A DNA stretch of 63,991 bases, the filler included, from Reticulomyxa filosa (Eukaryota > Protista > Foraminifera), in the NCBI GenBank assembly GCA_000512085.1. It is 24 parts of 24 records of this genome, joined end to end, with 100 filler letters (N's around TTAATTAATTAA, not from the genome) between each part and the next. Parts side by side here need not be neighbours in the genome. Positions count along the whole stretch, not along the records: positions 19,946 to 21,105 come from ASPP01037395.1; positions 21,206 to 23,565 come from ASPP01023509.1; positions 23,666 to 28,302 come from ASPP01007513.1; positions 28,403 to 30,319 come from ASPP01003169.1; positions 30,420 to 32,496 come from ASPP01018252.1; positions 32,597 to 33,800 come from ASPP01020049.1; positions 33,901 to 41,934 come from ASPP01019644.1; positions 42,035 to 44,783 come from ASPP01020800.1; 16 more parts are not named here. The stretch is one strand, 5' to 3'. The position numbers were made by a program, and so were the translations under genes. This document shows, piece by piece, positions 20,073 through 61,023 of this stretch. The first letter of the stretch is position 1, and each line of letters opens with the position of its first letter. The notes beneath the pieces are model-generated. The model had not been told where the DNA came from and did not search any database. It saw nothing but the letters and a program-made list of their open reading frames with translations.

Positions 20073-21093
20073 ATGTCGTCATTTAAAGCATATATGACTG
20101 ATGGAGTAACAGTACATACGATAATGTTGCCGAAATTGACGACGGAACACTTGAGGCAACAAATTCTTCAAGTTGCTCAGCCTGCACACGTCAACAATGT
20201 GTTAATGGCAATTGTTAACGGAAATGGTGATGATATTGAAACTGACGAAAATGTGATCTGTACATTTAAAAGAGATCATGTATACTTTACTGCTCAATTT
20301 CAATCCAGTTTTTTTCTTCTCAAAAAAATCATTGCGATTTCTAATTACAAGACGCACAGTAATATTAACAATGAATAGGAGATATCCCAAACACAGATGG
20401 ATTTGTAGAAAAAAAAGAGATGGAAAAACAAACGCAATCCCATAAAATGGACTGCTCATTGGTATTGTTGGCCGGAGCAATGCAATATGAAAAACAGTCA
20501 TATTTGGAAGATGTCAAGCATGACTTCCATTTGTTACGTGCTCTATTTCAATCGAAATTTGGCTATCGTGTATTCACTACTTACAATTCACAAACAATAT
20601 TTGCGTTATCGATCTGCACAACTTTTGCTACGTCAGAAAAGTTAGAAACAGTGTGTTGCCAGTGCCGGAAACGATCAACTGCACCAGCTACCATTGCTTT
20701 GTGTGCGTCAAATTGAACCGGTTTATCTTAATGACCAGAGATAAGAATATCTTGATCAAATACAACGAAGCGAGAAAAGAATTTGATTACGAAATGCTGC
20801 CGTCGCTTTCCAAATCACTTGGATACTTCAAATATGGCTACATTTGTCTCCACAAAAGTGATATCATTTTGTTTGGAGGTACCGACCATATCATGCACAC
20901 TCTTTTGTCGTCCATTCATATTTACAAAATCAAAGAAAAAACTTGGATCCAGTGCAATCAACAGCTACCATTTCCTATGAGTGGTGTCGCTGTTGTCGCC
21001 AGTCATGACGAGCGCTGTCTGCATCTTATTGGTGGCAAGAATGTTAGCTTCAAAAGTCTGCAAACCATTTCGTTGTTCGAAGCAAAGTTTTAA
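20073..21093 (+). pseudogene. PB1-like N-terminal domain + truncated caspase-like segment + Kelch repeats (chimeric, frameshifted)
   Basis: N-domain IVNGNGDDIETDENV. LVLLAGAMQYEKQSYLEDVKHDFHLLRALFQSKFGYRV resembles the first strand/helix of a caspase fold. IILFGG...IHIY.IKEKTW and LHLIGG are Kelch motifs. Confidence 0.55.
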
Positions 21094-21216
21094 TTGGAGT
21101 TACTANNNNNNNNNNNNNNNNNNNNNNNNNNNNNNNNNNNNNNNNNNNNTTAATTAATTAANNNNNNNNNNNNNNNNNNNNNNNNNNNNNNNNNNNNNNN
21201 NNNNNAAAAATAAAAA

Positions 21217-21249
<33 letters not shown>

Positions 21250-56700: not shown

Positions 56701-59075
56701 ATTATTAAATGAAGAGTTGGGAATTATTCAATTTATCGCCGAGAGGATTCGTGACACACAACCAATATATATGCGTTTACAGTCACTATTATTTCAAGTT
56801 ATAGAAGTTTCAAAAAGAAATAAAAATTTTAGCATCGCAGCAGCAAATGCAGTTACTGTACTCAATTCAGCAAATGTAAATATGTGCAATAAAAATTGGA
56901 AGAATGTCAGCATCCCTCATGCAATTTTAAATCATGCATATCTTGAAGGAACTGACTTCAGTAATGCCAATTTAGATAATGCTAGTTTTGCTCAGACTCA
57001 CTTGAATAAAACTAATTTCACAAACGCATCAATGAATGGAATTTATTTTGGAGAGTATGCATATTTTGAGGGATGTCCAAGTCATGTACTCGGTGTTCGG
57101 CTTTCACCAGATGGGAAAAAAATTGTTTTTATTCAAATAATGAAATTCAAGTATACGATGTATTATCAAGAAAAAAACTTTATAAGTTGCAAGGGCACTC
57201 GGATACTATAAGTGCAGTGGAATTTTCATCTGATGGTCGCAAAATTGTGTCATGTTCATATGACAAAACTATTCAGATATGGAATGCATCGACTGGGGAA
57301 TCACTACACGTAATGCATGAACATTCAGACTGGGTGAATGCAGTGCAATTTTCAGATGATAATTCCAGAATTGTGTCGTGTTCACGAGATGGGACAATCA
57401 AACTATGGAATGTATCGTCTCAAAGTCAATCTAAAGTAAAAGAGGGATTAGGAAATGTAACTGGAGTACGTTTTCTATTGAATAGTTTTGACATTCTGTC
57501 ATTTTCAGGCAACACTATTAGAATATGGAATGAATCACTAGAGAACAGTCAAAATTTGGAAGGACACACAGATGACATACTTGGAGTTCGATTATCATCA
57601 GATGGCAGAAACTATTGTCATATTCATGTCAGTCAATTCGAATATGGGATCTGCAGTCTAGAAAACAGCTTCAGATTTTGGAAAAATTTTCAAATGTTGT
57701 AACAATTGCGCAATTTTCACGTAATGGTTCCAGAATTGCGTGTGGTTTATTGGATTACACAATCCAAATATGGGATGTATCTCTTGGAAAGCAGATTCAG
57801 ACACTGAAAGGGCATACGCGTAATATAAACGGGATAGAATTTTTCCCAAATGAAGCCAAAATTATATCGTGCTCAGCGGATGGGACAATTCGAATATGGG
57901 ATATAGGTTTGGAAAGAAAAATCCAGATAACACAAGAATGCTTAGGTATTGTACGGACTGTGCATTTTTCACCAAATGGCTCCAAAATTGTATCAGGGTC
58001 ACAAGATAAAACAGTTCGATTGTGGGATGCACTATCAGGCAGCCAAATTCAAGTCTTTAAAGGTCATTCGGATCGAATACTTGGAGTGCTATTTTCACCA
58101 AATGGCTCTAAACTTGTATCATATTCGCACGACAAAGTTATGATAATATGGGATTTAGAAACTAGAGATAGGCTGCCAGTATCGCAAAGACTTTCGAATT
58201 ACATAAGAGTAGCTCAATTTTCACCAAATAGTTCCAAACTTGCGCTGTGCTTAGGTGATGAAAACATTCTAATATATGATATATCATCAAAACAACAAAT
58301 TCAATTAAACGGGCATACCTCTCCAGTATTACGAATACAATTTTCACCAAATGGATCGAAAATCGCCTCCTGTTCCAATGATAAAACTATTCGGTTATGG
58401 GATGTATTTTCAGGAAAGGAAATTTGCATATTTCGGGGACATTCGAAACTCGTGAAGGGAATACAATTCTTTTCAGATGGCTCTAAGATTGCATCATATT
58501 CGTGGGATAATAGCATTCGGGTATGGGATGTCGAGTCTACAACAGAGCTTTTCTCATTGAAACAACCAAAAATGATAAATGAAATAAAATTGTCACGAGA
58601 TGATACTAAAATCGTATCGAGTTCCTACGATCATACAATTCGATTGTGGGATCTATTGTCAAAAAAACAACTTTGGGAAGTAAATACAGGACCGAATAAT
58701 GTGCGTGGAATACAATTTTCACCAGATGAGTCTAAAATTATTTCCTATTTAGATGATACGACCATCCGAGTATGGGATAGATCTTCAGGACAACAAATCC
58801 AATTATTGAAAGGACATACTGGAAGGATATCTGGAATGCAATTATCACCAAATGGCTCAACCTTAGTGTCATGTTCGGAGGATAAAACAATTCGCTTGTG
58901 GGGCTGTGATAGTGGTAAAATTGTTGATGCTACTGAAACTAGTGTGGTGAAATGTATTTGGAAAGTGGGTGTTCAAAGTTTTGGCTTATCAATGGAAGAT
59001 AGCACTTGGAAGGATGTAAATGGTCTGACATCTGAACAGAAATTACTTGTAGAACAACGTGGTGGGAAACTTTGA
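53716..59075 (+). CDS. NLR-like STAND protein: Cys-rich Zn domain + RelA/SpoT-like nucleotidyltransferase + NACHT + pentapeptide repeats + WD40 repeats; frameshifts near 55900, 57130 and 57610
   Basis: PGINLQGYCTN..C...CPDC; VKD..RLLEK..DY.GD..VFDIGRFTI..KDFF..HRFHN..VEMQ; Walker A GKSGSGKS; Walker B FIMDGFDE; AILNHAYLEGTDFSNANL; about 14 GH...FSPNG.KI.S.S.D.TIRLWD repeats. The 5' exons are uncertain. Confidence 0.85.
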
Positions 59076-59610
59076 TGTTTTTGTTTATTGATTGGTTTAC
59101 AAATAAATTTTATTTAACTATTTACATTACAATTGGGAAAAAAAATAATTAATTCCAGCTATTCACTCAGTCTTCTAAATAGTTTCATTGACAAATGTTG
59201 CAACTTGATTGAAAACTCCCACAATGAATAAGTTTTTTTTACACAAAGAAATCTGAATATTTAGGTTTCAAAAAGATTGCGAAATTTTGTTCTCGATCAT
59301 TTTTAGCAACTTTGCACAACTGACAGGAGCGATTACCCAAATAAGAATATTAGATTTCTATTTGTGCCATGTCTGAATCATGTCCATTATAGTAATGCAC
59401 TCTTTTGACATAGTGCTTTTTTAAGAACTAAAATTAAATGATTTAATAGTTTTATTGCAATCATTTGAGGCTTTTGAGTTTAATCAAATTTTCATATAAT
59501 TGTATGAGCGAAGTTGTTTGTGCGGTTTGGGAAGGGCTGAAACGAGATTTTTTTCTTCTTCAAAAAAAAAATTACTCTTATTAATAAAACCTTTGAAAGT
59601 GAAAAAGAAA

Positions 59611-61023
59611 ATGTCTTATTCAGAAGTTTTTATATTCGTTGGAATAAATAAGTATCGACTTGAATTGGTCTCTTTGACGCTTGAAGCGCTGAAGAAACAG
59701 CTGTTTGAAGTAACAAAAGACGACAATAATAACAATGAGAAAGAAAATATGTCAATTAAAATCACTGACGTTAATTCATGTGCTATTGAAACAGATGCAC
59801 ATCTTCAACAAGCTATACAAAACTCTCAATTCCATTTTATTGCTTATTTCCAGCAACAAAGCATAAATGAATTACAATTGTCCGAATTGACTTCAGCACC
59901 AACACCACAGCATAATGACAAGAGCTCACCAAAAGAAATGAAAGAAGATACCCCAGAAACGTTAGACTTTAAAAAACATTGGAATATGGATTGGATAATG
60001 TCAAATGTTGAAGCGGCAATAATGGTTGAAAAAATGAAAAGTCAAAATAAACAAGGATTAATTATGGTGATTGCAAATAAGATGAGTGATATAATGTTAA
60101 ATAATGAAATTGCCGATTGTAAAGAATTTCAAGATTATAGGTTATATGTAATTAAACAAAAAGTAATTAAAATATTGAGTGAAATAGATATCAATGGAAA
60201 CATGTATGCAATTGATTGCAAAATTGAATGCCAACATAATATCAATATATCTACACAGTTATTTGTTACGGATAATGTAATTATTGATTATCATTTTATT
60301 CCATCTATTTCACCTATTTTATGGAATCGCAAATTTCATCACGATATTCCAGTAGAACTACAAAGTTACTTTAATAGAACATATGGATTTTCTTCAAATG
60401 ATGCAATTTTTAATGCACAAAAAGCATTAGAACTTTGTTTGAATAATTTCAAATATATTCATGCTTATGTCGCTAATTCATACAGCAGCTTAGGAATTGC
60501 GTATAGTTCAAATCGTGAACACAATAAGGCAAGAGAATGTTATGAAAAGGCCTTAGATATTAGCCTTCATATTTTTGGAAATAATCATGGTTGGATTGCC
60601 AATTTATATCAAAATTATGGGAACACATATTATGCTAATAGTGTATATGAGGAAGTAATTAAATATTACTCAAAATCATTAGAAATAAAAATTAAAATTT
60701 TTGGAACAAATCACATTAATGTTGCCAGGTTTTATGCAATCTTGGCAAGAGCTTATAGGGAGAACAAAGAAATGGACAAATCACTTGAATGCTCAGAGAA
60801 AAAATTACATATTTTATTGAATTTATTTGGATATAGGAATGCTGAGGTGGATGATGCGTATGCAAACTTAGGAAGTATGTGTAAACGAATAGGAAAAAAA
60901 AAAGAAGCATGTAAATATCTTGAGGAATCTTGGAAAATACGTACTATAGCATTTGGTGAATTTCATCCAATCACAAGACAAGTAAAAAAAAAAATATTGC
61001 AAATTCTGATAAGTGAGCAATAA
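59611..61023 (+). CDS. PB1-like N-domain + beta-rich domain + TPR repeat protein (intact ORF)
   Basis: IKITDVNSCAIETDAHLQQA; IDINGNMYAIDCKIEC..NINISTQLFVT; kinesin-light-chain-type 42-aa TPRs (VANSYSSLG.AY...EHNKA.ECYEKAL.I...IFG.NH). Confidence 0.85.
   Translation: MSYSEVFIFVGINKYRLELVSLTLEALKKQLFEVTKDDNNNNEKENMSIKITDVNSCAIETDAHLQQAIQNSQFHFIAYFQQQSINELQLSELTSAPTPQHNDKSSPKEMKEDTPETLDFKKHWNMDWIMSNVEAAIMVEKMKSQNKQGLIMVIANKMSDIMLNNEIADCKEFQDYRLYVIKQKVIKILSEIDINGNMYAIDCKIECQHNINISTQLFVTDNVIIDYHFIPSISPILWNRKFHHDIPVELQSYFNRTYGFSSNDAIFNAQKALELCLNNFKYIHAYVANSYSSLGIAYSSNREHNKARECYEKALDISLHIFGNNHGWIANLYQNYGNTYYANSVYEEVIKYYSKSLEIKIKIFGTNHINVARFYAILARAYRENKEMDKSLECSEKKLHILLNLFGYRNAEVDDAYANLGSMCKRIGKKKEACKYLEESWKIRTIAFGEFHPITRQVKKKILQILISEQ

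Follow-up and report, generated by a model that had tools for sequence, protein, structure and literature searches.

Among the closest described systems is that of caspase-8, FADD and cFLIP, in which an N-terminal interaction module stands on an animal-type caspase domain and inactive paralogues exist beside active ones; cFLIP is an inactive paralogue that tunes or shields active caspases. Interaction domains of the beta-grasp type are also known, with Par3-NTD located on polarity scaffolds and CIDE-N/CAD on the caspase-activated DNase and related proteins. PB1 domains, beta-grasp domains of about 80 amino acids, associate head to tail, and in the eukaryote-wide PB1 survey the word "caspase" appears nowhere in the main text, and the proteins combining PB1 with tetratricopeptide repeats (TPR) in stramenopiles, alveolates and Rhizaria are sporadic and single-copy (PMC7051960). 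Caspase-like proteins of the giant amoeba Reticulomyxa filosa branch with animal caspases and are cited as evidence for an early caspase origin (Klim et al. 2018, PMC5982838), and they serve as an outgroup for animal caspases (PMC10959488); no account of the activation of any of them was found in the literature searched. Here we analyse a stretch of 63,991 nucleotides of R. filosa (the window; assembly GCA_000512085.1), which consists of 24 short contigs joined end to end with N spacers, and in which three genes of this organism begin with the same N-terminal module, followed by a caspase-like piece in one gene and by TPR arrays in the other two. The three genes are members of one expanded family, not separate sensors and an effector.

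Compared with caspase-8, FADD and cFLIP, this family shares the two traits mentioned above, but its prodomain is a predicted beta-grasp and not helical, a putative sensor forms part of the same chain, and the dead copies exceed the intact ones by about 6 to 1. Bacterial pseudo-orthocaspases (PMC6426788) show the same change of His to Tyr at the catalytic dyad, whereas the family has mostly Tyr, not Ser, in place of Cys and is eukaryotic and intron-bearing. Effector-associated-domain systems (PMC8195603) also have a terminal adaptor common to proteins of conflict systems; unlike those adaptors, the module is not shuffled over many effectors. The text available of Klim et al. (PMC5982838), which concerns the same organism and was compared by description, speaks neither of a prodomain nor of TPR fusions or inactive dyads, and its supplements may list family members. 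A full-text literature search, whose coverage is thin for subscription papers including the R. filosa genome paper, found no description of the family. The family is real, lineage-specific and, apparently, so far undescribed, and it has an adaptor–caspase–sensor theme.

The shared N-terminal module and its predicted fold

First of all, the first-pass annotation had placed the same N-terminal domain on three genes lying on different contigs, and this was confirmed. The genes begin at 20073 (g1, contig at 19946-21105, 1160 bases), 50448 (g2, 49012-50686, 1675 bases) and 59611 (g3, 53205-62430, 9226 bases), and their products are RFI_35646 (P0004), RFI_37145 (P0003) and RFI_23655, respectively. 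The three N-termini are homologous: those of g1 and g2 are 26–29% identical to the g3 module, and in nine leave-one-out tests the profile scored the left-out module at 10.9–38.8 bits, with 0 of 1000 shuffles reaching the real score in each test and with the best decoy among 1195 open reading frames of the window at 6.3–12.9 bits, varying by profile.

When the module profile was searched against 1.84 billion representatives, 92 matches were obtained at E<=1e-3; four of them (P0034 and P0094–P0096) were removed as repeat artefacts, with the best single domain below 10 bits, and six proteins found separately were added, giving 94 carriers. As the family was counted in protein collections, the numbers are minimum values. 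The source is known for 43 of the 94, namely 39 from R. filosa and 4 environmental sequences (P0075, P0087, P0088 and P0097).

Every one of the 94 carriers has the module once only, and as its first recognised domain. Death-like adaptors also occupy a terminal position (PMC8195603), and this is counted in favour of the clustering mechanism proposed below. The pattern D-x-N-G-x-x-I-x-T/S-D, which had been likened to the OPCA motif of PB1, proved to be family-wide (D48 in 76 of 94 modules, G51 in 67, I54 in 78 and D57 in 69) but is not a canonical OPCA core; a loose OPCA pattern anywhere in columns 46–58 is present in 13 of 91 modules, mostly as a downstream DIETD. Conserved charged positions include K/R12 (63 of 94) and D/E57 (72 of 94) in addition to D48. 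The first strand (beta1) carries Lys or Arg in 54 of the 84 modules having a residue there and Glu in 16; in the window it is Lys in g1 and g2 and Glu in g3. This lysine is likened to that of PB1 on the ground of its strand position. No stretch of the module alignment is conserved enough for a DNA pattern. In sequence searches of the PDB, the PB1 domain of Bem1 was the recurrent best match, though a weak one (E 0.44 and 0.24), and its local match is gap-free around G-x-x-I-x-T-D.

The AlphaFold2 model of the module, built with a 62-row alignment, has a predicted local distance difference test (pLDDT) score of 94.2, and its predicted elements are strands 4–9 and 14–19, helix 24–35, strand 42–49, helix 58–64 and strand 71–78. 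The beta-grasp of PB1-like kind (strand-strand-helix-strand-helix-strand) proposed earlier is thus supported by AlphaFold2, Foldseek and VIA. In VIA, by which the models were compared with 48,161 solved chains, the top match is the PB1 domain of Par6 (Z 9.6, root-mean-square deviation 2.3, 73 aligned residues), followed among PB1 domains by MEKK3 (Z 9.1 and 8.9), p62 (8.8), Bem1 (8.7) and NBR1 (8.5). The first nine matches also include Par3-NTD (Z 8.9) and the CIDE-N domains of FSP27 (8.8) and Drep3 (8.6), RA-type domains come close behind (RalGDS RA at Z 8.4 and SHANK3 SPN at Z 8.1), and ubiquitin-like domains do not exceed Z 7.7. The highest identities among the structural matches are 20% for Par3-NTD and 17% for Bem1 PB1, and the feature-based Atlas leads agree on the same clan (0.81–0.88).

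Because PB1, Par3-NTD and CIDE-N are tied, the module is predicted to be a beta-grasp of that type, with no family singled out. It resembles PB1 in its size and in the acidic residues of its second half, and its common beta1 Lys is a possible counterpart of the PB1 lysine. The Par3 entry in the PDB is titled as a domain required for oligomerisation; unlike Par3-NTD and CIDE-N, the module stands on the caspase-like protein itself. The module may bind homotypically; the complex prediction for two copies of the g1 module (score 0.01), in which the alignment was unused, is not taken as evidence. The module is a domain missing from Pfam.

Family architecture, the caspase-like domain and X

With M for the module, C for the caspase-like domain, X for a domain of about 140 amino acids and T for the TPR array, the architectures of the 94 carriers are MXT 24, MCXT 24, MC 15, M 15, MX 10, MCX 5 and MCT 1, as counted by local profiles, with many short carrier models being partial. 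That is to say, a caspase-like domain and a TPR array lie in one chain in 24–25 of the 94, and X occurs without the caspase-like domain in 34. Since the module is kept in these 34 carriers, it is not merely an aid to caspase folding. Confinement of the module to TPR, caspase and NACHT proteins had been expected, and 79 of the 94 carriers do have a caspase-like domain, X or TPR; NACHT is not among the partners, because a Walker A motif is present in 0 of 94, and the carriers thus lack the NACHT or NB-ARC NTPase that stands at the centre of NLR/STAND receptors. Rare other partners are a TRAF-type zinc finger region (P0024), fibronectin type III (P0097) and a long acidic coiled region (P0088). 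The latter two suggest that the module also exists outside the caspase–TPR family, perhaps in related organisms.

The identities of module and X co-vary (Mantel rho 0.48, reached in 0 of 2000 permutations, 47 proteins), with mean pairwise identities among these 47 carriers of 35% for the module and 45% for X. As judged from these sequences, the module is inherited along with the gene. Moreover, the g3 protein aligns end to end, at 28% identity, with P0008, a close relative of g2, which means that g2 and g3 have the module in common as paralogues over the whole gene. The idea that the module was shuffled onto unrelated sensors and effectors therefore had to be abandoned in view of the MCXT chains, this paralogy, the co-variation with X, the absence of NACHT and the mostly lost dyad. 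Overall, what the first-pass annotation had observed was confirmed, and its interpretation was in part supported. On a quick, unrooted maximum-likelihood tree of X, the caspase-like domain switches between present and absent 10 times, and the well-supported branches alone call for 3 switches or more; the simplest reading would be an MCXT ancestor from which the caspase-like domain was deleted repeatedly.

Among the family members scanned, 11 match Pfam C14 (PF00656) above cutoff. For P0053, 13 of 13 PDB matches at E<=0.01 are animal-type caspases (caspase-7, E 2.4e-4), and its His and Cys align in register with those of caspase-7. Among the 43 domains covering both sites, the His+Cys dyad is kept in 6 and lost in 37; site by site, His is kept in 20 and Cys in 8, with Tyr, the commonest replacement, instead of His in 20 and instead of Cys in 26. 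The residues near the dyad are conserved (W88 in 42 of 43, C89 in 40, G90 in 42 and K130 in all 43), which marks the loss as targeted to the dyad. The six dyad-intact domains are scattered on the tree, which points to repeated loss or recombination, and the dyad is kept in 0 of 25 TPR-bearing models against 5 of 13 others (Fisher p 0.003).

In one dyad-intact protein, P0024 (RFI_05622), the module and the caspase-like domain are joined to a coiled coil and to a region rich in Cys and His, which weakly resembles TRAF zinc fingers (E 8e-4, under the cutoff); the protein may be a dedicated effector or else an artefactual fusion.

X is modelled as a helix followed by many short strands (pLDDT 88.5). 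No Pfam family matches it above cutoff, the Foldseek searches of the PDB and viral libraries were empty at E<=1e-3, and Atlas yielded nothing usable. Among the 48,161 chains, the best VIA match has Z 4.6 and none reaches 5, which does not by itself prove a novel fold. A resemblance to a bactofilin-like solenoid (Z only 3.5) was dropped. In the pattern scan for X, 0 of 23 candidates in bacterial and archaeal genomes and 0 of 35 in metagenomes held; one of 26 viral-contig candidates (L001; E 2e-4, 39 residues, phage structural-gene context) was judged to be chance. X is thus a further domain missing from Pfam, modelled with confidence and without a match among solved structures. In the TPR arrays the repeat number ranges from 1 to 14, and the most variable positions are 2, 5, 9, 12 and 13.

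The window genes and their surroundings

The features of the three genes are as follows.

20073..20307, + strand: g1 exon 1, predicted beta-grasp module with Lys in beta1 and an acidic DDIETDE patch (profile, AlphaFold2 model)
20308..20378, + strand: g1, predicted phase-1 GT-AG intron right after the module (sequence reading)
20459..20593, + strand: g1, caspase-like fragment, the first ~45 residues, with no catalytic His or Cys (tblastn with family caspase domains)
20596..21093, + strand: Kelch-repeat fragment, in another frame than the abutting caspase piece (Pfam Kelch_1, E 8.8e-5, above cutoff)
50205..50448, - strand: g2 exon 1, predicted beta-grasp module of the MPYKAF subfamily (profile)
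50137..50204, - strand: g2, predicted phase-1 intron that follows the module without a gap (consistent with the junction annotated for P0003)
49202..50136, - strand: rest of g2, X plus a short TPR array, no caspase domain, pseudogene (tblastn with P0008; TPR_12, E 2.5e-14)
59611..59853, + strand: g3 module, with Glu replacing Lys in beta1 (profile)
59962..60342, + strand: g3 X domain, ~140 amino acids (no Pfam match above cutoff)
60466..61023, + strand: g3 TPR array, four TPR_12 stretches, to the stop (TPR_12, E 1.4e-32)

It had been read earlier that two of these genes carry TPR and one a caspase-like segment, and this holds for g2 and g3 on the one hand and g1 on the other, with the corrections that the g1 piece has only 45 residues and that g2 is a pseudogene. 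In g1, once the predicted intron is removed, module and caspase fragment would share one reading frame, as judged from the sequence. This fragment corresponds to profile positions 3–50 of 238, before both catalytic sites; without either catalytic residue, the "caspase" gene of the window cannot be a protease. Its homology ends at 20593 and the Kelch homology begins at 20596, so that the junction belongs either to a rearranged pseudogene or to an assembly chimera. The predicted phase-1 intron lies at the same post-module position in g1 and g2. The lesions of g2 are in-frame stops at 50050 and 49990 plus frameshifts, across which P0008 is 60% identical to it (tblastn). Finally, g3 (59611-61023) is a single open frame of 470 amino acids with the order module-X-TPR, and the caspase-less state of g2 and g3 is seen in the DNA itself.

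Directly upstream of g3, at 54136-59075 (+), there is an NLR-like gene split over four overlapping frames, with a Cys-rich N-terminus, a faint similarity to RelA_SpoT (E 3e-4, under the cutoff), NACHT, pentapeptide repeats and WD40 repeats; another NACHT fragment of this type lies at 16809-17213 (-) (E 3.7e-8). Downstream of g3, at 61385-62406 (+), is a Kelch-family gene related to the Kelch piece in g1. Elsewhere in the window, the contig at 30420-32496 has a G+C content of 0.61 against about 0.33 in the rest and is a possible contaminant; similar fragments at 52696-53079 (-) and 2684-2863 (-) look retroelement-like by eye, with no Pfam support; a Peptidase M15 domain, probably accompanied by a membrane segment, is at 4047-4823 (-); and CAP-Gly matches are at 8431-8844 (+) and 19575-19784 (+), the latter below cutoff.

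Proposed mechanism and its rivals

The mechanism which we favour tentatively, at slightly under an even chance, is built on the architecture of module, optional caspase, X and TPR. The variable TPR arrays would bind a ligand and so release the module; the modules would then form head-to-tail stacks of the PB1 kind; the stacking would cluster the rare intact caspases among dead or caspase-less paralogues and activate them by proximity; and these paralogues would tune or shield the process in the manner of cFLIP, as activator, brake or decoy. The role might be defence or local self-destruction in the giant syncytium. In favour of the mechanism stand the structural matches to interaction domains, the charged residues of both PB1-type faces, which are kept in part, the single leading copy of the module and its persistence in caspase-less carriers, the animal-type identity of the caspase-like domain, the targeted loss of the dyad and the variability of the TPR arrays.

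Several points weigh against this clustering mechanism. Two features of a strict PB1 domain are lacking: none of 91 modules has the canonical OPCA core D-x-[DE]-G-[DE] at the aligned position, and Pfam PB1 (PF00564) matches none of 9 members and is absent from the 25 families listed for a set of 27. Beta1 Lys or Arg together with at least 4 acidic residues is found in only 15 of 82 scorable modules. Foldseek gave no match of the module at E<=1e-3, though the same domains ranked first (template modelling score 0.69–0.72 for CIDE-N and Par3-NTD), and the closeness of the RA matches to the PB1 rows means that the fold leaves the binding mode unfixed. C-to-Y and H-to-Y are single transitions favoured by an AT-biased genome, and variability at the TPR positions mentioned above is general for TPRs. 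At least two dyad-intact models are partial (P0078 and P0099, which like P0053 run on into X); this confounds their apparent lack of TPRs, so that a division of labour between TPR and protease is no more than a possibility. Only the copy at 59611 is intact in the window, the other two of three being broken. In addition, a link of the family to infection or death is putative, as are its binding, proteolysis and expression. On the first point, type II PB1 domains are also without the OPCA core (PMC7051960).

The strongest competitor, which we nevertheless consider unlikely, is that the module heads the chain as a ubiquitin-like or RA-like domain and does not polymerise. It would bind another partner (a small GTPase, p97/proteasome or a trafficking factor) or fold back and inhibit its own chain, each protein being a lone TPR-gated scaffold or pseudoprotease. 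The missing canonical OPCA core would agree with such a header, as would RA-type matches lying within about 1.5 Z units of the top, a module that is co-inherited and not shuffled, and a sensor and caspase domain already joined in one chain in 25 carriers; yet the top nine structural rows are all PB1-, Par3- or CIDE-type interaction domains, the best identities fall on Par3-NTD and Bem1 PB1, and Bem1 is the recurrent, though weak, PDB match.

Less probable still is the model of the first-pass annotation in a strict two-gene form, in which TPR-only sensor genes recruit TPR-less caspase effector genes through the module in the style of death domains. The 34 carriers with X and no caspase and the 15 models with a caspase and neither X nor TPR would suit it, all 5 dyad-intact domains among the 94 carriers lie in TPR-less models, and the dyad-intact P0024 continues into its TRAF-type region; these points are countered by the 24 module-caspase-X-TPR carriers, by the extension of dyad-intact P0053, P0078 and P0099 into X, by the many short models that are partial, and by the lack of an active site in the window's own caspase gene. 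Least probable of all is that the family consists for the most part of leftover duplicates, neutral or in decay, of a repeat-rich genome, with caspase-less and dyad-less forms as steps of decay, for although only one window copy in three is whole, many models are partial and the adjoining NACHT-WD40 gene is also frameshifted, there are 24 long module-caspase-X-TPR models with invariant structural residues, and open frames kept at the low mean identities of module and X suggest long purifying selection.

A broader extension of the clustering mechanism, which we regard as rather improbable, is an independent foraminiferan caspase platform, in which a polymerising beta-grasp would stand in for the death fold, dozens of diversified TPR receptors would carry cFLIP-like pseudocaspases arising from repeated dyad loss, and X, as a new fold, would replace the NLR NTPase as the switch. 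In summary, the family suggests a testable activation route by a prodomain other than the death fold and a fused sensor. If the clustering mechanism is true, proximity-driven caspase platforms would be convergent outside animals, with an unusually large expansion of pseudocaspases, and an independent caspase platform would let a giant syncytium sacrifice the infected parts of its network.

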